Below are positions 18,701-35,058 of a DNA stretch of 64,000 bases, piece by piece; within the stretch, counting starts at the first letter, position 1, and each line of letters opens with the position of its first letter. A program made the position numbers and the translations under genes. The notes below the pieces were generated by a model. That model was not told where the DNA came from and ran no database searches. It saw only the letters and a program-made list of their open reading frames with translations. The stretch comes from Cyanidioschyzon merolae (taxonomy: Eukaryota): NCBI GenBank assembly GCA_000091205.1, contig AP006500.2; one strand, written 5' to 3'.

Positions 18701-20032
18701 CTCCCGCCGCCTCAAGCGAACGGTCCAAACAATATGGGAACGTAGACACGGTACCAGTCGCGCCAGTAACGCCGGCTTGACTCTATACCGGAACTGCAAC
18801 CTAGCGTACACATGCAAGCACTGATGGGAGGCGCTGGAATTCCCGGGGCTTGCTCGAGGTACCCAGTGGCTCGCCAAAATCCGCGTTGGTGGCATCTGGC
18901 TACCAGCACCGTCTCTAAGCCGTATAGGAACACTGGAATCGCACTGGGAATCACACTGTCCCTGCTGAGGAAACGAGACCCCCCGAGACGCTGACATATT
19001 TAGGCTTATAGTGCCCGCGCTGGAGACAGGAGCACAGCGAGTTCCTTGAAAGACACTAGCAGCTGGGCATCGCCGTGATAGTCGAAGGCCGGACACTCAC
19101 TCTGAGTGTAGCACTGGCAACTGATGGTCCGCTAACCGAGCCTCAGCGCTCATTAGTGGCGAACAAACTCACACCCTACCTTCTAGGCGCAAGGTCCAGC
19201 GAATCGGATACGCACACGGGTTTAGTGCTCTCTACGCCTACCCACTGGTGGGTGTCAAGCACAAACCCGCATTGCCAACCAACAACAACGCATTCCATGC
19301 ATGATCACGGAGGAGAGAGGCGGCTCCCAGGATATATCCTAACAGCCAAGTTTCTCCAGCGTGTCGTGCAGCGAAGGCAAGCCTGCATCCGCAGGCTGTC
19401 CGAGCACAAACTGACGACGAGACCCGACTCTACGTCGGATGAAGCACGCCTCGAGCCGACGCCCTCTGTGCTATAGAAGAGCCGTTCTAACTCTATGACT
19501 CGTTCGTACCAAAGGTAAACACGCAATTGCGGATGATTTGGACAGTCAATTGGCACAAGATAGGACGTGTGAAACCACCAGAGTATCCTAGAAGAAGTAT
19601 AGCTAAAGTGACTTGAAGGAAGGTGTCGATGGGTGGATACTTCACCGCGCACTGAAAGAAAAGAGAAAGAAAAGAAAAAGCGCACAATCGAGGAACGCTA
19701 CCCGATGGGAACGTTTTGTCTATGAAAAAATCCGCCACCGCTTGGCGGATGCGCACGCCAGGGGAAACGGCGCTCCAGCAACAGCGATTCGAAAGCGGCA
19801 GCGGATCCGCGCTGTGGCAAGGCGATCGCGCACGCGCGCGCGCGCGCTCACTTCAAACCTCGCGCCTGATTGCTCCTCCGAGCGCTGGGCATCCCGTAAC
19901 GAGCTACGCAACTTGCTAACTTGGGGTTTTCACGAGCGAGCTTCCCAGGGCTGAGCTGAACTGGTGTGCTGCACTTGCACCGGCTCGCGTACTGTTCTCT
20001 GCGTGGTGTCCCTGTCTGGCGCTCGCAGTGAA

Positions 20033-21316
20033 ATGAGCTCGCGGGGTTTACAGACGGGCGAAGTTGGATGTGACACACTTGCATCGGACGCACCTGACGA
20101 GCCAGCCTCAACGTCATCATCATCTCCATCGTCGTTTACTAGACCCCGTCGAAACGTCGCGCACGCTCATAAGAATGCAGCGAAAGGGAAAGTGCTGGCG
20201 CCAGGCAGGTTTCACGAATTGTTTCGAAAGTATTTGCACAAGTTTCGAGGCAAGGCGTGTTATATCGACCCTGAGATGCCTGCGTCATGGGCTCGTGCAG
20301 CGCGGCGGGCAGTCTACGCTTATGGTGCGCGTCTGCAGCCGTATTTTGACGCTGCTCTGTATTGCGTGATCACCCATAGAGCGCCTGGTGATTGTTCGCC
20401 GACGCTCGAACGTGCGCGACGGTGGCGGATCCATCTTTTACATTGCACGGACGGTCGGGTGCAGCGCTGGATCCGCGTCGGCGAATACGCAGCGGAATGG
20501 GCGCTGGCTGGTCTGCGAGCTTCGGCTGACGTTCATTGTATTGGCACGGCTGACGGAAAAGAGAACACCCCTGCACCAGTTGCATCAAGATGGAGAAGAA
20601 GAGGCGTTTCGAGCGTGCCCGCCGTGAAGCCCGACATACTCAAGCTACCGCGAGCATCCGGACCCGAAGCATGTCTGGCCCCGTCGAATGATCCACACAG
20701 GAGCCGATGTACTGGAACTCCGTTGCAGTGGCCATCGCAGCATGCACTTGTTTGTACCGAGGTCTTGACGTTGACGCCGACGGCGTCGAACGCGCTATCG
20801 ATTTCCGGTGTGGAACGTATTGCCGAGGCTGGAGCGTCTGCAATCACACCTATAGCGACTGCCGCATCAGTGTTGCGTTCTGCACGCGAGACCAGCACCT
20901 GTCTAGAGCAAGGTGGTGCGGCGATGTCGGCGGAGGAACCGATGCATTCGGGTTATTGTGAGCTTTGCAGCACGAGATTCCAGCATTATGCCGTACACCT
21001 CAAATCCTCCGAACATAGCCGACGTAGCAGGCGCATTGATTGGCGTCCACTCGATGCGCTGGCTATGGCGATCTACACAGAGAGATTGCGTGAGCGCTCG
21101 AGCCTCGCGAGGGCGATTGCCGCATCCGTACCGGTTTCGCCGATCTCGAGCAGGGATAGCTCTGTGATTTCAGATATGTCTTCGAGTTTGGGTGCCGCTT
21201 CCTTTATCGCGAAGCAGCAAGCCGGCGGGAAAGGCTCCGAAAGCCCGACAGGACCATTGCTGTACGCCGCAGCTGCTTCCGAGGACAGCGTGCGGAATCG
21301 GCTACTAGTCGGCTAG
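20033..21316 (+). CDS. Dbf4-type (CCHH) zinc-finger protein, a possible DBF4/Cdc7-activator homolog
   Basis: The motif GYCELCSTRFQHYAVHLKSSEHSRRS fits the zf-DBF consensus GYCExC-x8/9-H-x5-H (human DBF4 has [22 protein letters not shown]). A basic N-terminal region might be a motif-N/BRCT-like segment. ATG at 20033; the track start at 19964 is a GTG. The rest of the protein is low-complexity and S/A-rich. Confidence 0.55.
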   Translation: MSSRGLQTGEVGCDTLASDAPDEPASTSSSSPSSFTRPRRNVAHAHKNAAKGKVLAPGRFHELFRKYLHKFRGKACYIDPEMPASWARAARRAVYAYGARLQPYFDAALYCVITHRAPGDCSPTLERARRWRIHLLHCTDGRVQRWIRVGEYAAEWALAGLRASADVHCIGTADGKENTPAPVASRWRRRGVSSVPAVKPDILKLPRASGPEACLAPSNDPHRSRCTGTPLQWPSQHALVCTEVLTLTPTASNALSISGVERIAEAGASAITPIATAASVLRSARETSTCLEQGGAAMSAEEPMHSGYCELCSTRFQHYAVHLKSSEHSRRSRRIDWRPLDALAMAIYTERLRERSSLARAIAASVPVSPISSRDSSVISDMSSSLGAASFIAKQQAGGKGSESPTGPLLYAAAASEDSVRNRLLVG

Positions 21317-22149: not shown

Positions 22150-23002
22150 CAAAAGGAACCTTAAACACCTCTCGTCAACAAGGAGCCGAGTCTGCGTCCG
22201 CTCCTGCCGATGCCTGCGGCGAGCAGAGGCGACACAACCAGAGCGTTGCGTCGTGAAGCGGGAAACCCAGACAAACTCGCATCCGATTTGCCAGACCCCA
22301 TACTTCGAGGGATTGGATTCGATTTGATCGGGCCTAACCTACCTAGTTCATGATAAATCGTTCGCTCAACCTGCTAGATGCTCTGGTTGTGTGCCGCAGC
22401 AAGACCAACGAAAAAAATACGATAAAGCGTTGCTTGCACCTCGAGCTGACATCCGTGCTTGTACCACAGGGCGTTCCAGCCGCCTTGCGGTGTATTCCAC
22501 GTTGCAGCGATTGTCCATAATAGACGCCCAGTACACGATGAATCACTGCATCTAGCGTACCTCCCGACATGGTGATTGGCCTAGAAGAAACGGAGCGAGG
22601 GCGCGCTCGCACAGGATTCGAGTTGTCTCCCGCTATTGCTGACGAAAATCTCAGGTTCGGATTGTTCCAGTGATTTTCCTCCTCTGCATCCGAACAATAG
22701 CTTCGCCAGGACTCATAGATACACGCAGCGTTGCACATGCATCCACAGCGCCGCTAGACCCCATAGCGTCGCTGGGTGCACTGCGGGCTGCGTATCGCAC
22801 CTGGGATACTTTGTCGCATATCTAACGCACGCACGCATCAAGGGACGTCTGCGGCTGAAACGCAGGGTGCCGCTGCCAGGCGCTCCTCGGTACCGCTGGA
22901 AGGCACTCTGGAAGCGCAGGCCAGTACGCGCACAGAGGCGAAAAGAGGAACACGGGACTAGTGCTGCACCCGATCCGAGTGTTGTCGTCTTGTGTGCCCA
23001 AC

Positions 23003-23797
23003 ATGTCTCGCCGCTACGACCAACGCGTGACGACCTTCAGCCCTGAGGGGCGACTCTATCAGGTGGAGTACGCCTTGGAGGCGATTTCGCACGCCGGCGC
23101 CTGCCTGGGGATACTCTGCTCCGACGGAGTTGTGCTGGCAGCCGAGAGACGCAACCTGTCCAAACTCCTGGATAAAAGAGGTCGCATTACTCGAGCATCG
23201 GAGAAGATGTACGAAATCGATAACCACATAGGCTGTGCGGTAGCGGGTATCACAGCGGACGCAAACGCACTGATCCAGAAAGCGCGTCTTTTCGCGCAGC
23301 GCTACCTATATACCTATAACGAGCCGGTACCAGTTGAATACCTGGTTCAACAAATCGCCGACGCGAAACAAAGCTACACACAGTTTGGCGGATTGCGACC
23401 CTACGGCGTTAGTTTTCTGTTCGCGGGCTGGGACAGACACCTCGGTTACCAGCTCTATAACAGTGATCCCAGCGGGAACTACGGTGGGTGGAAAGCAATT
23501 GCGATTGGTCAGCACCATGCTGCTGCGAATAGCATGCTTCGACAAGAATATCCCGAGAACCCCGAGGCCATGCCGACCATGAAGGACGGTATGCGGCTGG
23601 CAGCCAAGGTGTTCGCTAAGACCATCGATTTGTCTATTCTCGATGTGGAGAAACTTGAGTTCACCAGGGTGTGTCCTCTGGATGCGTGCACGAACGCGAA
23701 CATTTTGTTTCACAATGTAAGTGATGAGGAGCTGAAAAGCGCGTTCGAGGAGGTGAAGCGAGAACTGGCGCAGGCGTCGGGCACGGAGAACACCTGA
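23003..23797 (+). CDS. PSMA4: 20S proteasome alpha subunit, alpha-3 / alpha type-4 (PSMA4/PRE9-like)
   Basis: 264-aa ORF. [51 protein letters not shown]...[12 protein letters not shown]...[20 protein letters not shown]...[20 protein letters not shown] matches PSMA4 almost block for block ([32 protein letters not shown]...). ATG at 23003. Confidence 0.92.
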   Translation: [264 protein letters not shown]

Positions 23798-24350
23798 AGC
23801 TGCTCGTGACAACGTGGCCTACGCGGAACGCCCAAGTCTTCACTACCAGAGCCTGGTAACACGAAAACACAACGAGATCAGACGAGGAATCCGTCGGTAT
23901 GGATTGCTGGTGCGAGAACGAACCATATCGCGTGCTCTACCACGCGCGGCATGCCACAGCGCACCTGGCCAGACACCTGTTTGCGGCACCTGGGTACAGT
24001 TTGGCACCAGCGACGGTCGCCTGCTACACATATTCTTCGACGCACGGCTATGGAACATGTCGCGATTCAGATAGAGCTGCGCTACGAAGGACGGTATCTG
24101 TTAGGGTTCCGCATCCCCTGCCGCTTCCATGCATGCCACTGCGACTTTGAGGTGCTTTCAACGCCCCCGCCAGGCGCTTTTACGCACGGACTTGCGTCCA
24201 TGAATGTAAGTGCGTACAGCGTTTTCCGATCGACCGAATGTTTACCTGAACAAGGTGATCCTCGATTGCACGATGATGATGATGATGACGATCGGCATCA
24301 AGTGAAGCATCTGCCAAGCCACGCCAAAGCCTCAGCTTCCATGTGCTAGC

Positions 24351-24415
24351 CATCACCATCACCACCACCATCACCACCACCATCACCACCACCACCACCA
24401 CCACCAGCCGCACTT
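24351..24415. repeat. Imperfect (CCA/CCATCA)n tri/hexanucleotide microsatellite; a (GAT)6 run lies just upstream at about 24272-24292
   Basis: Read directly: catcaccatcaccaccaccatcaccaccacc...ccaccag. Intergenic, with no supported ORF. Confidence 0.85.
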
Positions 24416-25377: not shown

Positions 25378-26406
25378 ATGTTCGTCAGCAGTGGGAACGC
25401 CTTCGTACCGAGTGGGAAACCCCTAACCAGAGCAGCTTCCCAAAGACGGGGCGCTCGTCACAAAAACCAGGTCTGTTGCAAGCTGCCGCTCGGTAAGAGC
25501 CGTCTATGGAACCGCTTGCTTGAATGCTTCTCACTACCGCCAGAGACGAGCTTCCGCAAAGCGGTACGCTGTCTGGGCCTCACCAACAGCCTGGTAATCA
25601 CGTGCTGGTGCTGTCTGCACGCTACCGTGGTCGCACCAGCGCTCGCTGTCAACGGTTTGGTGGACCACCCGTTAACGCAACCGCTGCGGAACAAATACTA
25701 TCTGGTTCGTGCTGGGGAGTCTATCGCAGACGCACGCGGGATGGTCGAGTCGAACCCCGTCGATAAGACCTCTATAGCAAAGTCGGGTTTGACGGCTCGT
25801 GGTGCCCAACAAGCTCGCGCTGCTGCCGAGCAACTGGTCAAGAAACTGGGCTTTTGCCAGCAGACGAGCCAGTGCTGGATCTGGCCGTCGATGACGCTGA
25901 ACGCCTATGAAACCGGTGAGATCATCGGCGACAAAGCCGCTTTGGGTCACGAACGAATTGTGCCCGAGTTTAGCTATCTCGACAAGAGGGGTCTCGGCGT
26001 GTACAATGGCAGCATTTCCAGCGACGTTATTCCGAGGCTGCATGCACAGGATCGTGCGGACGCCCAGTATCGACCACCGGCTGGCGATGACGGTACCCCG
26101 CCGGAGAGCATTTTTGACGTCTTCATTCGAGTACGGCAGCTGTTGTCGAAACTGGAAACGCAGTACGGCACCCAGGGCGCAGATGTGGTTATCGTCGCGC
26201 CCGATACCTACACCTTGAGCGTCTTAGAGTGTGTGATGAACGGTGAACCGCTCGAGCGATTCGAACAACACCTGTTCGCACCGGGCGAAGTCCATTTCGT
26301 TGCGAATCCAAAAGTGTTCCCGATACGCGACGAAACCTTACCCCACGAACGCGTGAACTGGGCCAATATCGAGAGCGTTCGGCACGGGAGCGCTTCGGGC
26401 GGCTGA
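25378..26406 (+). CDS. Histidine-phosphatase (phosphoglycerate-mutase fold) family protein, apparently lacking both catalytic histidines (a candidate pseudo-phosphatase)
   Basis: YYLVRAGESIADARGMVESNP...SGLTARGAQQARAAAEQL aligns to the PGAM signature LVRHGESEWN...GLEQAKRAG with His replaced by Ala. Later, GADVVIVAPDTYTLSVLECV aligns to the second catalytic region VLIVAHGNSLRGIV with His replaced by Pro. ATG at 25378. The N-terminus has a hydrophobic stretch (LVITCWCCLHATVVAPALA). Confidence 0.6.
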   Translation: MFVSSGNAFVPSGKPLTRAASQRRGARHKNQVCCKLPLGKSRLWNRLLECFSLPPETSFRKAVRCLGLTNSLVITCWCCLHATVVAPALAVNGLVDHPLTQPLRNKYYLVRAGESIADARGMVESNPVDKTSIAKSGLTARGAQQARAAAEQLVKKLGFCQQTSQCWIWPSMTLNAYETGEIIGDKAALGHERIVPEFSYLDKRGLGVYNGSISSDVIPRLHAQDRADAQYRPPAGDDGTPPESIFDVFIRVRQLLSKLETQYGTQGADVVIVAPDTYTLSVLECVMNGEPLERFEQHLFAPGEVHFVANPKVFPIRDETLPHERVNWANIESVRHGSASGG

Positions 26407-26697: not shown

Positions 26698-27960
26698 TCA
26701 GCGGTACTCGTCATGGAGACGCCACATGCGTATCGCTCCATCATGACATCCAGTGAGCAGACGAGTCGCCGAGCGGTCGAACGCAATACAAAGCACGACA
26801 GCCGGTACGCGTGCCCCGACTGAACAAGTCACGCCTGAGGTGGCCTGGGGCGCAGCACTCTGGCTCTGCCAACACCGCTGGGCAGCGTTCCACCAGTGCA
26901 GTTGCCCGTCGAGGTCGCCGCATACCAACTGGCCATCTTCACTCACGGCAGCCGTGCTGAGGGTCGGCGCTGGTCCAGGAATCTCGTCCACGAGTTGCAC
27001 AGCGGGCAGCTTCCACATTCGCGCACCGTCGGCGCTCACGGACACGAGCCGCTCAAGCTCGCTTTCTGTGAGATCAGTCTCGAGCCAGCAGCTCGACAGG
27101 CCAATGACTGGCTTCGCATGGCGTGTGCAGACACCAGCGGCGACACCCTTCACAATATCCCAGCTTCGAATCGTACAGTCGTCGCTGGCGCTTAACAGCT
27201 GCGGTTCGAGTGCTCGACCAACAAGCGAACGCACTCCGCCCCGATGACCGCCTAACTCGTGGACACTGCATTGGCCCCCGACGCGGGTATCCCACACGCG
27301 AATCATCTCGTCTGCGCTCCCCGAGAAGAGTACATGTGTCAACCGCGGATGGACTGCGAGGGCGTCCACACTCGCCCGGTGACCTACCAGACGTAGTGCA
27401 ATGCGACCGGTACGCGTATCCCATGCGAGGACGCGTTTATCAGCGGCACCACTGTACAGAAGATGTGGTGCTGACTCCGCGAAACGCAGCACTCGAACGG
27501 GTCCCAGCAGCTGCGACTCGGAGCGAAACGTATGAACAACAAGCCCACTGGCCAGATCAAAGAGTCGGATGCTTCGATCCCAGACACCGGCTGCGAAGGT
27601 GACGTTATCGCTGGCGACATCAAGCGCAACGGGCCAGCTATTTTCCACCCAGACTTGTCTGTATAAAGTCCAGGGATACCAGGTGCTTCTGGTGGCCGGT
27701 GAGAGCGCCCATGTCGCGGCTGCCTGCACCACCACACCCGGACCGGTTCGAGGGGGTTCGTGCACCCCCGCCGCCGTTGCCGGTTGTGTCGAGAGCGTCC
27801 CGCGTAGCTTCGTCAGCCAGTCGGGTACATCTGCACCTGCTTTCGGTCGCTGAGGGCGCAGGGCGCTCCTCCCGGGCTCTCCGAAGAGGCGCTGTGTGAA
27901 CACGCTGTTCCATTGGACAAGTTCTCGCAGTCGACGTTCGTTTGACGCTGCATCGCTCAT
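26698..27960 (-). CDS. WD40-repeat protein
   Basis: Several WD repeats ending in WD/WN dipeptides: HRASVDALAVHPRLTHVLFSGSADEMIRVWDTR; LGGHRGGVRSLV...LLSASDDCTIRSWDI; HDGAIRMWRL. ATG (MSDAASNERR) at 27960; the track ORF start at 27996 is a TTG. Confidence 0.75.
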   Translation of the reverse strand: MSDAASNERRLRELVQWNSVFTQRLFGEPGRSALRPQRPKAGADVPDWLTKLRGTLSTQPATAAGVHEPPRTGPGVVVQAAATWALSPATRSTWYPWTLYRQVWVENSWPVALDVASDNVTFAAGVWDRSIRLFDLASGLVVHTFRSESQLLGPVRVLRFAESAPHLLYSGAADKRVLAWDTRTGRIALRLVGHRASVDALAVHPRLTHVLFSGSADEMIRVWDTRVGGQCSVHELGGHRGGVRSLVGRALEPQLLSASDDCTIRSWDIVKGVAAGVCTRHAKPVIGLSSCWLETDLTESELERLVSVSADGARMWKLPAVQLVDEIPGPAPTLSTAAVSEDGQLVCGDLDGQLHWWNAAQRCWQSQSAAPQATSGVTCSVGARVPAVVLCIAFDRSATRLLTGCHDGAIRMWRLHDEYR

Positions 27961-28652
27961 CCTGAGCGCAAGGCACGTGTCCCTGCGGAGGCGCAAACGC
28001 GAGCGGCAGCGTCACTTACTGCTTCCGTGAACGACGCCAAGAACAGTACCCGGTACCATGGACGAGCGGTAACTGAGCGTCTCCAAGCTCAGAGACCCAG
28101 TGAAGAAGCGGAAGCAGTCCCGTTGGCGAAGCGGAGACGAACCGAACGCCAGTCCATCCGTAAACGAATGCATCGATACATCGATCGGTGGCAAGTCGCC
28201 CGGTATGCTCCTCGCCCTGGAATGCACACTGCGTACTCGTGCGTCTTTCTGGGCGAGACGCTCAACAGCAGCAGCGGTACAAGGCAACGAGTTCGCGATG
28301 GGTAACGTGCGCTTTCCCGGAGTCGTTAGTTACGGAAACCTTGTGACGTTCAAGTAGGTCGAGTTCGCTCCAATGTATTCGAAACTGGACACGTGCACCG
28401 TTATTCATGGATAACAAACGATGTGCCGTTCGCTTGTGCGGTTGGACAAGTTTTATGGACTGGTGCAGGACACCCCTGCTCTAACCAGGTGCGTATTCGG
28501 GTCGAGTGCGTCACAGACACACCGCCTAGACACGACCTGGTGCGGTCTATGGTGTTGTTGTTGCTGTTGTTGTTGGCCTTATTCGCTGCTGCAGATGCTG
28601 AAGCGATGTCACTGCTTCGCCTCTAGTCATTTTAGGTATCGTACTGTTTCTT

Positions 28653-28765
28653 TCACAGCGTCGTGGGTGGTGCATGGACACCACCAGCATCATCATCATC
28701 ATCATCATCATCAACGTCGTCGTCGCCGTCGTCATTATCTTCACGAATGATGTTTTCAGCGAAGA

Positions 28766-28796
<31 letters not shown>

Positions 28797-31700
28797 CGGT
28801 GCTTCACGCAGCGTCGACTGGGTGCGCGCATCTACCAAACTTGCCCCAGCGTTCAGCAGGTTGTTTCCGCTGAGCCCCAGATGATTATCAAACTGCGCGC
28901 CCATGAGCGATTGAGCGCGTCCTGTGCGCTGGGTACGCAGGTTGACCGCACTCACGTCGGTCGAGTAGAAACGCCGACGAGAGCGCTCTCGTATGGTCAA
29001 GTCCACGTCCGACAGGCGCGAAACGTGACCACTCGAAGGCGCGTGGCTCCGAGCACCAGCGCCCAAGGAGCGCGGGCTCCGGTTCCACGGCATCCCGCCG
29101 CCAGGCAAACTCTCGTGAGTGAACGTATCACCGGAATACGTCATCGGGACTGCCTCGTATTCGCGTTGGTTCGCAGCGCGGCGCGTGAGTTGCACAAACT
29201 TGGGCTCAACATCATACGCTTGTGTCGGATGCGGTGTGCGTTTGCGATGCAAGACGCCGAACCACTCCAGTTCCTGTACAATAACTTTGGGTGACGGGAA
29301 ATACATTCGATTCCAGTGATGGATCAAAAGCGGTGGTGTCTCGCAGATGATCACACACAAGATGATGATCAGCCAAAGCAGCGGCTCGCTGAATATCCGC
29401 ATCGCGTTCCAGTATAGCATTGCTGCTAGGTCCAAGTCCACGGTAAAGGTTCGTGCACAGAATGCAGGTCCTAGCCAGAACCACAAGGTTGCGCTGAAAA
29501 AGTATAAGCAGAACGAAAACAACGTCCAGCGTGCTTGATACAGCGCAAGCTGCAGATGCACGACCACAACCAGCTCAGTGAAGCAAGTCATTTCGAAAAT
29601 GCTCTTGCCCAGCATTTGCCCGCCGTTTCCTGGACCGTCCGCGCGGGCATAAAAAGTCAAGTAGAACATGACCACCGACTGACAGAGCGCTGTGAAAAAC
29701 CAATAGGCAAACACTCGCCAACGTCCGCTGGTATTGCGTTGCCCGCTGCGATAAATCTCCGGATAAAATAGCGTGTACGCGGCAGACACTTCCTGATCCA
29801 GGGTCGCCAACACGATCACCGGTATGGATGTCAGGAAAACGTTGTACATGGCGCCAAGCCAGGGATTGAAGAACTGTGCTCCGCTGAACGCCGATTTCGT
29901 TGCAAACCAGATCTCGAACGATGCCAGAGCCGCATTCTTATAGATCATATACACCACAAGCTTGCTGTTGCGTTTGTAGAACCAGCGGCCGTGCACCAGC
30001 ACAAGACGCTTCAGGAAGCGAAACTCCCCAATCGAAAAATCGCTAGCGAGTGCAGCCTCCATGCCTTCGCGTCCAGCAATACCGACCCCGACGTGCGCGA
30101 CCTGGATCATGCCGACATCGTTCGCTCCGTCCCCGATTGCTAGCGTCGTGGCATGCGGGTTGTTCTCTCGCATGCAACGCACAAGTTCCGCTTTCTGCTT
30201 CGGCGTCATGCGGCAGGCAATGACGCATCGCGCATACTCGCTGACGCGCACAAGTTTTCGCCGCAAGCTCCCCTGCAGTGCAACATCCAGTACATCACCG
30301 CCCACCACGAGCGCCTTGGCGATCGCACTGACGCCGTCGACTTCGAGCGCCCGCCAACGCGCTTCCGCACAGTCCAGTTGTGCGTCGATATCGGCAGCAT
30401 CGCCCGGACTCAACACCACGATGTCCATGTTGCGGCCGAGCAAGCCCGATGAAAGACCCACGTTGATTGCCGTCTCCTGTTTATCGCCGGTCAGCATCCA
30501 GACTTTAATACCGGCGAAATAAAGTGATCGCAGAGTGTCTGGAACATCACGCTGCAGGTAATCGATAATGGCACTCACGCCGAGCAACGTCAAGTCGCGT
30601 TCAATCTCGTCCGCCAGCGCCTCAACTTGGCTCGCACGATTTTCCATCGAAGATGACGCCTCCGTATAGCGTTTCGCCCATTCGGCGTACAGGTCTTCGT
30701 CGAGATCGCGATAACCAACGACCAAGGTCCGCAGACCAGCGAGCGCAAAACGATGCACTGCCTGCTGAATACCGGCCAGAGCCTGTTCGGCTTTCGTGTC
30801 CGTTGAACGAGCTCGCGCACACATCACCGAGTCTGCGCCTTTGGTGTACAATCGAATGCGACCGTCGGGCTTCCGAACAACAATCGACATGCGCTTACGC
30901 TCGGATGTGAATTCGAGCACGTGCAACACTGCGTAGGTCACCGGCTGTTCGTCCTCGAGCAGAATCATACTCAGCGCGTTGCGGTCGTAGAGCGTGACGC
31001 CACTGTAGTGGGCAGCAATGACCAGCGCCCGCTCATCCGGACTCGGCGCATGGTACTCGATTTGTCCAGTGGTATCGTCGCGGGACGGGGCTACCGTGTT
31101 GCAAAGCGCAAGCAATCGGAAAAACTCCAAATCGTTCTCATGATCCCGCCGACGCTGCGTAATCTCTTCGCCGTCAACGTACGCTTTGGCGAATTCCATA
31201 ATGTTTTGGGTCATCGTTCCGGTCTTGTCGGTAAAAACGTGCGTGATCTGGCCAAGCTCATCGTTGAGCGTCGAGTTCCGGCACCGGGCTCGTGTACGCG
31301 TCTCCCAGCAGTACATATGGTCGTCAACGACAATGAAAATCGACTGCAGACCTCGAACGATTTCCATGGTAACGTAGAGCGAAATCGGAACAAAGTTCGA
31401 AATCGTCAAAAAGAACGTGAAAAAGCGGAGTACGACGTTACCCACGCTGTAGCGCTCATCCAAGTACCAGGTTTGCGACGGATGCAAGTGCCGGTGTGCC
31501 CAGACGCCGTTCAAGATGGTCAGAATTAACGCAATGAAAAACTGGATGCAAATGAGAGCGAGAATGAATCTCGTGATCGTTTTCTCGATGCGACCAACTT
31601 TGTGCGCTTCCCTTTTCAGATTCATCATGAGTTTCGTCTCTTTTCCGGTATAAACGGCAATGCCGATCACCCAGTCCGTGTTGCGCAGCACAATACCCCG

Positions 31701-32657
31701 CTGCAGCAAATGGTCCCGGGAGACCGCGCACTCCACCACCTCGCCAGTCGGGAGACCTGTTTCGTCGGGCACTTCGATGCGAGCGCGGCCTTCAAACTCG
31801 TACAAGCGCGGGTTCGGAGCCTCGCAGTGGAACTCACCGATCAGTGTCCGCAACTGCTTTGGTGTGAAGAGGTCGCGATTCAGCGGAATACATGACTTGA
31901 CTTTGAGATTCGTTTCGCCATCGATTGCTCGTGTCTCCACGAAGCATGTCCCATCAGGCGTGCTGGACGACAGCGCTATGAGGTCAGCAGGCACGCCCTC
32001 GTCACGGCGAACGACGACGAGATCCCCGACTTGAACGTCGCGCCAAGCTTTGACGTGACTTTCCGCGTCAGATGCAGCATTTCCACTGTTCAGAACTTCA
32101 ACAAGCGTCGCGTTAACACGACGATCCTCTCGATATCGCTTCAGGTCCTCGGCGAGCTCCTTTACGGCAGTGATAAAAATCAGAAAAGCCAGAGCCGCCA
32201 GTGTAGCGTACCGGCCAGCAGTAAACACCGGTGTTATCGAGGAAATGAGGTACAGGATACCGACTATAAGGAAATAGAAGTTGGCCGGCCGCAATAGCTG
32301 GCGCACCAGAAAGACTGGAACAAACGTCCACAGCTCGTACTGCGTTGTTGATATGTAGTTGCTCATGAAGCGCTGCTTCGCGTTGAACGTCGGGTTATTG
32401 AGACGTACCACACGCGGTTCCGTCGACCGTTGCCGCTCAAACAGGGGACGCAAATCAGGATCTTTCAGAAACTGCACCAGACCGGCGGCGGCTCGCCGCC
32501 ACCACGGCTGTGTCGCACTCGACGCAGTACTTGCTGCTGCAGGCGTGAACGCGCCAGCTCCGCCACCAACCCCCACGGTGGTACCGTTTAGCGAGTCATT
32601 GCCTGAGGCAGAGGAAGCGCTGTCACGATCTCGTGACGCCGATGCCTCGAACCTCAT
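28653..32657 (-). CDS. P4-type ATPase (phospholipid-translocating flippase) with a polyQ and polyAsp low-complexity C-terminal tail
   Basis: 1334 aa. P-type motifs DKTGTMT and GDGANDVGMIQVAHVGVGIAGREGMEAA, and the P4-specific region FLKRLVLVHGRWFYKRNSKLVVYMIYKNAALASFEIWFA...FNPWLGAMYNVFLTSIPVIVLATLDQ. Ten transmembrane-like hydrophobic segments. The C-terminus QQQQQQQQHPFF...DDGDDDVDDDDDDDD is encoded by the (CAT)n, (CGT)n and (GCT)n runs at 28690-28800. ATG (MRFEASAS) at 32657. Confidence 0.9.
28690..28800. repeat. Trinucleotide repeat block, (CAT)8 plus (CGT/CGC)n plus (GCT)9, inside the 3' coding end of the P4-ATPase; a (TGT/TGC)n run lies just downstream at about 28551-28575
   Basis: Read directly. 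The reverse complement encodes the polyD and polyQ tail. Confidence 0.85.
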
Positions 32658-35058
32658 CTTTCCAGGGTACCTCACGCAAACAGGAAACAAGACCGCTGAA
32701 ACGCGCACTCGAGGCAAACGACACGCATGCCAGACACGCAGCAGGCACGCATGCGTGTACGGCAGCAGCACCGCAATCGTGTCCGTTTTGTACTGGAAAT
32801 ACCCGCGCGCATCACCGATGCAGGCGTGCGTATACACGGTGTCTGTCCGAATGGGCGCGCGCAAGTCCGGAAGCGCTTGCGAATCCGCCTGCCGGTGCCC
32901 AGCGGGGGGCCTCGCGCACTATCGTGCAACTTTGGGAAAGGTCAGGATGGTTGAATCCGTACAGGAATCTCTTTATGCGTGCAGTGGCCATCGACACTTT
33001 CGGGACAACGTGCGATGACGCCCATTGAAACGCGCAGGCGTAGTTGTGCTGATCCGGTTCGGTGTCGATCACTGCAGCAGACGCACCAGTATCGTGGGCG
33101 CCGACCCGTGCCGCACGAGGTCGGCGTTTCGGACTCGGAGACAGGTAAGCTGGCGGCTGCTGTAACCTCGCACTGACTGGCATTCGGCTGAGGATTTTGG
33201 CTCGAGTCCGGACAAACGATGCCCCAGCGCATGCAGCTCATGTTCCAGAGCTTTTTCCGGCACCCGATCACTGCATCGAACCAGACCCCTGCATCCACAA
33301 TTGCAGTCGAAAACCAGGCAAGTGGCCGACACACCGCTCCAAAGAGTATCCCAACGTTTCACAAGCTCCAAACTAGGTTACCAAAAGTAGCATCAAGGAG
33401 TCCAGGCCGCAGCTTCGCTGGCGTATCGAGCATGCGAAAAATACCGACGCTGCGATGCTGTGCGCGTCATGGCAGCGTTTCGGCGCCATGGCGCATCGCA
33501 GCGTGCACGCACGACGCCGACTCTGTCAAAAGCACCCACAAGTCTGTCTCCAGTGTCCGCCAACGCCACCAGATGATCGACATTGTGGCAGCGTGCGCGT
33601 GTGAGGCGCGTACGCCACAAACGTAGAAAACGAACGCTTGTGAACGCTCGTGACGCGGCGATCTCAGCGATCATCATCACACCCGCCCGGGTGCGGACAC
33701 TGACTCGCTGAATACGACGCTAACGGTTGTTGCGGTGGGTGTTATTGAAGCCTGCCAGGTAGCCCTCTCTGGGGAACGTCCGAGCGCTGGCGGACGCTGG
33801 AGGCTTCTGCCCATGGGGCTACCTGAGCACACATCCTGTAACCCGGAACGGGGGCCACAGGCCTTCGAGCAGTGTCGCAAGCTCTGGCTGCACAGCTCGG
33901 ACGCGGCCGTTCCCGTGCGAAAGGTACCGAAACGCACCAGTGCACCGCAACGACTCTGGCGACTGTTTTGCTTGAGGGCGCCTGCTGAAAGCGATGAACT
34001 TGTGGAGCTAGAAATGCATAACCACAAGTGTGTTGGCGCAAACGGGGCTGGTACCCTTGTTTCTGCGAGCGAGGTTTCTGGTACAGAGGGCAGCGCCGAG
34101 GTTGAAGTGTCGCAGCGTACGGCTCCGACCTCAAAGCCGCGCACCACGCTACCGCACCGGAAACGGCGTCGACTTCGGCAAGAGATCGCCTCTATGCTAG
34201 AAACGTCGACGGAAACCTTTACGTTCTCCGAACCGATTCCGCTTTCATTGCTTGTAGAAGTCTTGGTCGAGAGCAGGGAAGTTTCCACGGCGTCAGACAC
34301 GCGCTTCCAGCCACTCGAACTTCTTCACTAAGACACCCGAGCGTAAAAGGACGTGACAGGCACAGTCACCTCTCGGTAGAAGCGAACTTGAATTGGTGTA
34401 CAGTGCTGGCACAGCCGCCCAGCTGACTTGGTTTGAGCACGTCCGCAGTCTTCCCTGCAGCATGCATGAAGATGGCGGCGGCTGTGAATGTACAGAGAGA
34501 TGGTAACGATGTGATAAAGGGTGCCATGGTAGCGCCTCTGTAATGGTCGGTGCATACTGGATGGACCACCGCGAACAGTACGTCTGTCTAGGCAGGCGCT
34601 CCCACTCGTAAAGGACTTGTGGATTGACTCGAGTCTTGCGTCACAGGACCTGTCGAGCTCCATGGCTTCAGAGCTTCCAGCAATCCAGTGTGGTGGCTCG
34701 TGGAGCAGCAACTCGTTGCTGGGTACCTTCCCTTCTCTGTAGCCGAGAGTGCCCCGCGTGCAGTGTAGTGCGCACTGGACGTAGAGCGAAGCGTATCCAA
34801 ACCATGAGGGCATGCAGCGATAGCACCGATCGACAGGGATATTGCCAGGTGATACGCCCCCTGCGCGCCAGTCTCCCAGATCGTATCGAACAGCGGATCA
34901 ACACACGATGACGCAAGCCGTATACGCATAGACGGATACAATATGCAGCTGGAAGAGCATCGTCGTTGTCGCACAGCTTTAGGGAAATCGATTCGGCGAG
35001 CCGCTACCGCTCCTATGCTCATCTAGCAACAGAGAATAACGACCTTGGCGAGGTCCGT

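Follow-up and report, generated by a model that had tools for sequence, protein, structure and literature searches.

The metal-independent phosphoserine phosphatase PspA (iPSP1) of Hydrogenobacter thermophilus and PhoE of Bacillus are small, cytosolic, bacterial members of branch 1 of the histidine phosphatase superfamily, with broad specificity and a catalytic set of the order R-H-...-R-...-E-...-H. The gene studied here lies in a 64,000-nucleotide (nt) stretch of nuclear DNA of the red alga Cyanidioschyzon merolae (contig AP006500.2, assembly GCA_000091205.1; hereafter the window), and its product belongs to the same branch by Pfam and by its alpha/beta phosphoglycerate mutase (PGAM) fold. 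Compared with PspA and PhoE, however, the nucleophilic His is replaced by Ala, the second Arg by Asn, the Glu by Lys and the second His by Pro; eight residues are inserted behind the RAGES loop, and E197, D202, R204 and D276 are present as new invariant residues. The C. merolae protein is moreover eukaryotic and predicted to be targeted to an organelle. The gene already has an annotation and its fold is a known one; apparently not yet reported is that the whole orthogroup is without the catalytic histidines, carries lumen-type signals and is found in photosynthetic eukaryotes only. The two features on which the comparison depends are as follows.

25378..26406, + strand: complete coding sequence without introns, 342 amino acids (aa) plus stop
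25699..26280, + strand: histidine-phosphatase fold domain (His_Phos_1, branch 1), residues 108-301, from Pfam, hhalign and Foldseek

The 342-aa open reading frame (ORF) with its stop at 25378..26406 was confirmed as an earlier sequence-only reading of the window had given it, and the encoded protein is 100% identical to that of C. merolae 10D (BAM82516.1 / XP_005538552.1 / UniProt M1UWD8), named in the databases 'hypothetical protein, conserved'. The same reading had proposed a histidine-phosphatase fold, and the similarity proved not to be spurious. Residues 108-301 matched Pfam His_Phos_1 (PF00300) with an E value of 6e-7 and a score of 29.8 bits, the curated cut-off being 21.7, and a family profile aligned with Bacillus PhoE at an hhalign probability of 96.9%. 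An AF2 model of residues 90-342 was confident (pLDDT 90, pTM 0.85), and a Foldseek comparison of this model with the PDB placed the protein in the PGAM fold, with E values of about 1e-10 to PspA, dPGMs and GpgP. A single-sequence search of PDB sequences returned only a chance-level match (EpxF, E = 0.24), so that the family profile was needed. More specific assignments failed. The NCBIfam dPGM_arch equivalog model, which has a cut-off of 225, scored 19.9 bits, and the PspA equivalog model NF045917, with a cut-off of 350, scored 12.6 bits; hhalign to Escherichia coli GpmA gave a probability of only 56%, over the N-terminal half. Of the residues in the catalytic definition of the superfamily, the protein lacks the two His, the Glu and one of the Arg. 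Since the catalytic residues are lost and the dPGM and PspA equivalog models failed, the names phosphoglycerate mutase and PhoE phosphatase are unsuitable for this protein.

The positions at which the protein departs from the canonical enzymes were located by alignment.

25708..25719, + strand: R111-A112-G113-E114, the RHGE motif with its nucleophilic His changed to Ala (HMMER, hhalign, family alignment)
25729..25731, + strand: D118, six residues past the nucleophile, where canonical enzymes have Asn (hhalign, family alignment)
25753..25758, + strand: N126-P127 of the family-specific 'TNPV.K' loop, in the 8-residue insertion relative to PspA (N in 94%, P in 93%)
25900..25902, + strand: N175, standing where canonical enzymes have the second phosphate-binding Arg (S..RA..TA motif; HMMER, hhalign, family alignment)
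25966..25989, + strand: E197-F-S-Y-L-D202-K203-R204, with K203 at the position of the proton-donor Glu (hhalign, family alignment)
26200..26205, + strand: P275-D276, a Pro in place of the second catalytic His followed by a near-invariant Asp (HMMER, hhalign, family alignment)

The nucleophile region ...KYYLVRAGESIADARG... reads R111 A112 G113 E114 S115, with GCT at 25711-25713 as the codon of A112. This residue was aligned with the nucleophilic His of RHG by HMMER and by hhalign, the latter against both PhoE and GpmA. In the second-His region, ...ADVVIVAPDTYTLSV..., P275 is encoded by CCC (26200-26202) and D276 by GAT (26203-26205); P275 fell on the second catalytic His, which in canonical enzymes belongs to a ..HG.. 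motif behind a beta-strand, in HMMER and in hhalign to PhoE, the GpmA alignment ending before this region. The changes of RHG to RAG and of the second His to Pro, both pointed out in the sequence-only reading, were thus recovered by two independent profile methods, and as no His lies within several residues of A112 or P275, the result is independent of the exact alignment. The losses exceed those first noticed, in that the proton-donor Glu (K203), in canonical enzymes a Glu or Asp of the L.E..G.WEG loop, the second Arg (N175) and probably the canonical Asn (D118) have been replaced as well. Two of these pairings have alternatives: HMMER paired N126, across the 8-residue insertion, with the canonical Asn instead of D118, and it paired E197 with the PspA Glu across gaps where hhalign placed K203 on the proton-donor Glu of PhoE, leaving some ambiguity. 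To judge from the alignments, D118 is probably the replacement of the Asn, and R111 alone of the catalytic core is retained in the C. merolae protein.

Since both catalytic His and the proton-donor Glu are lost, as is the second Arg in this species, a phosphohistidine intermediate would be impossible, and the protein would therefore be neither a phosphoglycerate mutase nor a PhoE-type phosphatase; activity of either kind is presumably absent. The top PDB sequence matches to the family profile were consistent with the loss of these residues, being engineered mutants in which the same His had been changed to Ala: PspA H9A (4ij6, LVRAAESEW) scored 31.0 bits against 29.2 for the wild type, and TIGAR H11A (3e9e, IVRAGETQY) 29.6 against 26.4. 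Both mutants are reportedly inactive. They share RAG or RAA at the nucleophile site with the natural family; they keep all other catalytic residues, whereas the natural family has lost and replaced most of them. A conventional phosphatase or mutase, with an alignment that misleads at the catalytic positions, would agree with the source annotations and with Pfam membership. It is nevertheless regarded as highly improbable, since two profile methods agree, no His occurs near either site or is universally conserved, the dPGM_arch and PspA models fell far below their cut-offs, and the His-to-Ala change seen here is the one engineered in the deposited PspA and TIGAR structures.

The relatives were then examined for the same substitutions, and both catalytic His were found replaced in all of those surveyed. 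Among 96 close homologs none had His in the RAGE motif; 92 matched the motif and 4 gave no match. Of the 92, 83 read RAGE itself; in the rest the third position was C, S or A, or the nucleophile position was S. No His was seen in the motif among the 150 best 50%-identity representatives either. Residue frequencies were taken from 187 aligned family domains. R111 is Arg in 100% of these, and position 112 is A in 166, S in 13, P in 3 and V in 2, and never H. Position 118 carries an acidic residue (E or D) in 179 of the 187 (96%), E197 is Glu in 98%, position 202 is D in 91% and E in 7% (D or E together in 99%), R204 is Arg in 99.5%, and D276 is Asp in 96%. P275 is Pro in 89% and never a conserved His. 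Less constrained are E114 and S115, retained in 75% and 80%, position 203 (A, P or K across the family) and position 175 (R in 46%, N in 17% and S in 16%), at which land plants keep the Arg. A compensating His was sought over the whole family alignment; no universally conserved column was found, and the most His-rich column (64%) has Phe in C. merolae. This only fairly common His of the family (120 of 187) belongs to a land-plant motif, DLRRH, and its column corresponds to C. merolae F295 (26260-26262), in the C-terminal helix, which lies over the active site in canonical enzymes; C. merolae has H298 three residues on.

These frequencies indicate that the canonical machinery was swapped early for a different set of residues that has been nearly invariant since. 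The sequence-only reading had called the protein catalytically dead, provided that its alignment held. That statement holds for the phosphohistidine mechanism and on sequence grounds; it does not extend to the pocket, whose new residues are conserved at 96-100%. Conservation of the new residues at this level argues for a retained, pocket-dependent function and against a decayed site. It also bears on the notion of a decaying pseudogene or annotation artefact in the C. merolae genome, in favour of which stand the missing catalytic residues and nothing beyond. This was refuted by the intact frame, by the complete identity with the reference protein, by the 90-100% conservation of the residues in orthologs from hundreds of species and by the detection of peptides of the tomato ortholog, and its probability is put close to nil.

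The same conservation raises the question of new chemistry. Catalysis in the lumen by D276, D202 and E197 together with R111 and R204, for example an Asp/Glu- or metal-based hydrolysis or isomerisation, could account for the 96-100% conservation, across red algae, land plants and diatoms, of the residues newly present at the former catalytic positions or next to them; conservation this strong is seen more typically in active sites than in scaffolds. Substrates of the Tat (twin-arginine translocation) pathway are exported folded, which would allow for a cofactor or metal site assembled beforehand. To our knowledge, on the other hand, there is no precedent for His-independent catalysis in the histidine phosphatase superfamily; no cofactor-binding motif was found in the protein, and the geometry of the residues was judged from the alignment only. 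New catalysis is therefore considered unlikely, albeit a rival to be taken seriously.

A further alternative is that R111 might bind a phosphorylated metabolite or phosphoprotein, which would be sequestered or sensed without hydrolysis, by analogy with engineered His-to-Ala substrate-trapping mutants or with STYX-type pseudophosphatases of the protein tyrosine phosphatase (PTP) fold. The invariance of R111, the partial retention of the Glu and Ser of the RHGE region, the second Arg kept in land plants, and the fact that the family profile's top PDB matches are His-to-Ala mutants of PspA and TIGAR are all in keeping with such a role. Most of the phosphate-binding set is gone, however, the second His being Pro and the second Arg being variable and Asn in C. 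merolae. Because the acidic residues E/D118, D276, D202 and E197 in the pocket would repel phosphate, trapping of a phospho-ligand is thought a poor explanation, with a smaller chance than new catalysis. The superfamily does contain at least one solved natural pseudoenzyme, a salivary acid phosphatase of the flea (8gdl); this is a secreted arthropod protein of branch 2, with only distant structural similarity to the C. merolae protein.

Close homologs were found in other Cyanidiales (56-83% identity, E = 1e-84 to 1e-140), and homologs of about 45% identity in land plants, charophytes, chlorophytes and a haptophyte (E about 1e-50 to land plants). A profile search returned 284 cluster representatives at E <= 1e-30. 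The orthologs come from hundreds of species, and the lineages with members are red algae, green algae, land plants, a haptophyte and diatoms; every member for which the organism was identified, which is the case for a minority of the cluster representatives, is from a photosynthetic eukaryote. Land-plant orthologs include Arabidopsis At5g62840 (Q9FM11 / AED97663.1) and tomato Solyc03g114250. All signatures defined here for the At5g62840 orthogroup are present in the C. merolae protein, namely N.Y.LVRAGES, TNPV.K and VPE[YF]S[FY]LD.RG.G, and further DGTP.ES..DV..RV.QL.S.LETQY, [SA]PD[ST] and PGE. Two scans of 185,579 bacterial and archaeal species, one genome each, with family-signature peptides gave pattern matches and no relative confirmed by tblastn, in a design that detects only relatives keeping the family motifs and that divergent ones would escape. 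A prokaryotic, and especially a cyanobacterial, origin was considered and set aside, as these motif scans of GTDB species genomes yielded no tblastn-confirmed relative.

Members of the diatom (stramenopile) type are longer, at 450-1150 aa (P0249, P0251, P0258, P0265 and about 50 others). In these the His-less domain is followed by a charged, coiled-coil-like stretch and then by a tail of about 100-500 aa, and in 50 of 55 a Gly/Ala-rich predicted transmembrane segment precedes the tail. An acidic motif similar to AMEEY[LM]N.DDGG..WL...L..I.DED closes many of the tails. The C-terminal extensions of the long forms matched no Pfam domain; fragments of them are named 'tellurite resistance protein' in databases. 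The layout suggests a lumenal domain that would be tethered to the thylakoid membrane and carry a stromal tail.

The N-terminal 90 residues of the C. merolae protein precede the conserved domain, and a hydrophobic segment within them had been read from the sequence as a sign of membrane or organelle association.

25378..25548, + strand: presumed plastid (stromal) transit peptide, residues 1-57, boundary approximate (from sequence)
25549..25647, + strand: presumed thylakoid-lumen signal, residues 58-90 (n-, h- and c-region layout)
25648..26403, + strand: predicted mature protein, V91-G342 (onset of conservation; AF2 model of residues 90-342)

M1 is the sole start that would yield the N-terminal extension, as an in-frame stop precedes it by 5 codons and no further Met occurs before M122. 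Residues 1-57 are basic and rich in S, A and R, with Phe at positions 2 and 9 (MFVSSGNAFV); Cyanidiales orthologs start with MFVLS... and MEAAFV.... An N-terminal Phe is a mark of red-algal transit peptides, and MFVSSGNAFV fits this pattern. Behind this region follow an n-region with R60, K61 and R64, a moderately hydrophobic h-region at about 65-87 (peak Kyte-Doolittle value of 1.66 over 15 aa) and a c-region, A88-L89-A90, that immediately precedes the conserved mature N-terminus V91-N-G-L. Conservation starts at V91-N-G-L-V...P in all lineages. Relatives show the same arrangement at this place, with ...INRRHLLTALSISISTSHLSIPAADA|RGLFQMPP in poplar and ...VSRRMFLRTAALAGLGLV...AHA|MNGLRVFP in another member. 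The organelle signal suspected earlier was thus corroborated by the h-region and the A-x-A site before the mature N-terminus, and the hydrophobic segment looks, from this layout, like the h-region of a cleavable thylakoid-lumen signal behind a transit peptide rather than like a membrane anchor. Upstream of the h-region, 214 of 239 full-length members have the RR pair of a twin-arginine (Tat) signal. In diatom members an endoplasmic reticulum signal with an A|F junction is added in front, as expected for secondary (complex) plastids. By analogy with these signals the C. merolae protein is placed, provisionally, in the thylakoid lumen.

One further feature, in the mature domain, varies among lineages.

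25855..25875, + strand: Cys pair C160...C166 (GFCQQTSQCW), a candidate disulfide (from co-occurrence)

Both Cys are present in 83 of the 187 domains, only one in 7 and neither in 97; they flank the loop before the CWIWPS strand. Such co-occurrence suggests a lineage-specific disulfide between C160 and C166, which would fit an oxidising compartment. Land-plant members have a second, C-terminal Cys pair (YKC..PP.C).

The land-plant orthologs (At5g62840/Solyc03g114250) differ from the C. merolae protein in their clear twin-arginine motif, in keeping the second Arg and in the extra C-terminal Cys pair. The sequence of Solyc03g114250 printed in the supplement of a tomato chloroplast proteome study, ...TTRRHLITS...VSHARGLFQMPP...YFLVRAGESEYE...IIVSPDSDN..., is plainly that of a family member, with the RR signal, RAGES, VSPDS and all family motifs. 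In that study At5g62840 is named as the Arabidopsis homolog, and the tomato protein was detected with 5 peptides and 18 peptide-spectrum matches in 8 of 8 soluble chloroplast samples, which places it in the chloroplast. It is listed there as 'not reported by PPDB, SUBA4 or plprot' and filed under glycolysis. The soluble fraction also held 59 lumenal proteins, stroma and lumen being mixed. In the literature on At5g62840 only PGAM/glycolysis table entries were found, and a 2013 review of the thylakoid lumen does not have the protein in its list. GreenCut2 holds two Chlamydomonas genes of the PGAM family, Cre05.g232550 (PGM4) and Cre06.g272300, both down under high light and singlet oxygen; orthology of either to the His-less family could not be established. 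Relatives appear in databases as 'phosphoglycerate mutase', 'broad specificity phosphatase PhoE' and 'phosphoserine phosphatase', and all these database names look like over-annotation by fold or chance similarity.

A lumenal protein of enzyme fold that serves as a non-enzyme would have a counterpart in TL29/APX4, which the table of the lumen review gives as a Tat-exported lumen protein, 'peroxidase-like, associated with PSII' (photosystem II), and does not list as an enzyme. The likeness is one of kind and not of homology: the outcome is the same as that proposed here, the haem peroxidase fold of TL29/APX4 is unrelated, and its lumenal location and PSII association are experimentally backed, whereas the lumenal location of the His-less family is predicted.

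Taken together, these data are best explained by a conserved lumenal binding protein without phosphohistidine chemistry, a member of a His-less PGAM clade that as found is restricted to eukaryotes and has a rebuilt, constrained pocket; this is judged probable. According to this proposal, the N-terminal transit peptide would import the precursor into the plastid, and a second, cleavable signal consisting of the h-region and A-x-A would take the protein through the thylakoid membrane to the lumen. For most lineages the route is presumably the Tat pathway, to which their twin-arginine signal is suited. The mature 28-kDa domain would keep the PGAM fold, with the former active-site pocket rebuilt from conserved carboxylates and arginines (R111, E/D118, E197, D202, R204 and D276). 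Through this pocket the protein may bind a small ligand, a metal or a partner protein in the lumen and so serve the photosynthetic membrane. Such a pocket-mediated role is suggested by the pattern of conserved residues.

Several observations weigh against this proposal or narrow it. The near-invariant pocket residues suit new catalysis as well as binding, and that they line one pocket follows from alignment to canonical enzymes and not from measured distances. The tomato study classed Solyc03g114250 as stromal/novel and not as lumenal. The RR pair is absent from the C. merolae signal (F-R60-K61), and Cyanidiococcus and Cyanidium have a single R, so that the thylakoid export route of the Cyanidiales is uncertain; lumenal placement of the C. 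merolae protein rests on the h-region, the A-x-A site and homology. The small-x-small test applied to the cleavage site is lenient, being passed by 238 of the 239 full-length members. The literature search found no activity, binding or localisation experiment for any family member, and the reach of the prokaryote scans, bound as it is to the family motifs, likewise tempers the eukaryote-only distribution. With these points considered, non-catalytic binding in the lumen is still ranked as the most likely function, with new catalysis as a serious rival and trapping of a phospho-ligand less likely; a conventional enzyme or an artefact is effectively excluded.

The surroundings of the gene contain a zf-DBF protein gene (19964-21316, +), a proteasome alpha subunit gene (22961-23797, +), a WD40 beta-propeller protein gene (26698-27996, -), which is convergent and lies some 290 bp past the stop codon of the studied gene, and a gene for a P4-type phospholipid-translocating ATPase, or flippase (28653-32864, -). 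As these four flanking genes are unrelated housekeeping genes, the genomic context yields no hint of function. About 1 kb upstream of the studied gene, at 24350-24406, lies an intergenic, perfect to near-perfect (CCA)19 trinucleotide array, which can alternatively be described as 4.8 copies of CCACCACCATCA; artefactual poly-Val, poly-Thr and poly-Asp ORFs stem from it. Perfect trinucleotide repeats, (CAT)8.7 at 28688-28713 and (TGC)9 at 28771-28797, were also seen inside the minus-strand ORF 28653-32864. They lie near the 3' end of the P4-type ATPase gene and would give short homopolymer runs in the C-terminal tail of its product.

Glycolysis is the heading under which this orthogroup stands in databases and omics papers, and the sequence argues that this cannot be right: since the catalytic His are lost family-wide and most relatives carry a lumen signal, the glycolytic mutase and phosphatase names are probably wrong. 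The orthogroup appears to have been overlooked by functional work. Much of the thylakoid lumen proteome is without an assigned function, and a protein whose conservation extends from red algae to land plants and diatoms, and of which the prokaryotes scanned yielded no relative, is a candidate for a part in the biogenesis or regulation of the photosynthetic membrane. A bolder and only tentative extension is that the protein, present in every photosynthetic-eukaryote lineage sampled and apparently arisen after plastid acquisition, reuses the PGAM fold with a new carboxylate/arginine site for an unrecognised lumenal function, which might be a new reaction or the handling of a metal or ligand for the building or upkeep of the photosynthetic membrane, with diatom forms that would be membrane-tethered and bear a conserved stromal tail. 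The family would also provide a clean example from nature of a histidine phosphatase fold in which the whole catalytic set was lost and a strongly constrained pocket kept.

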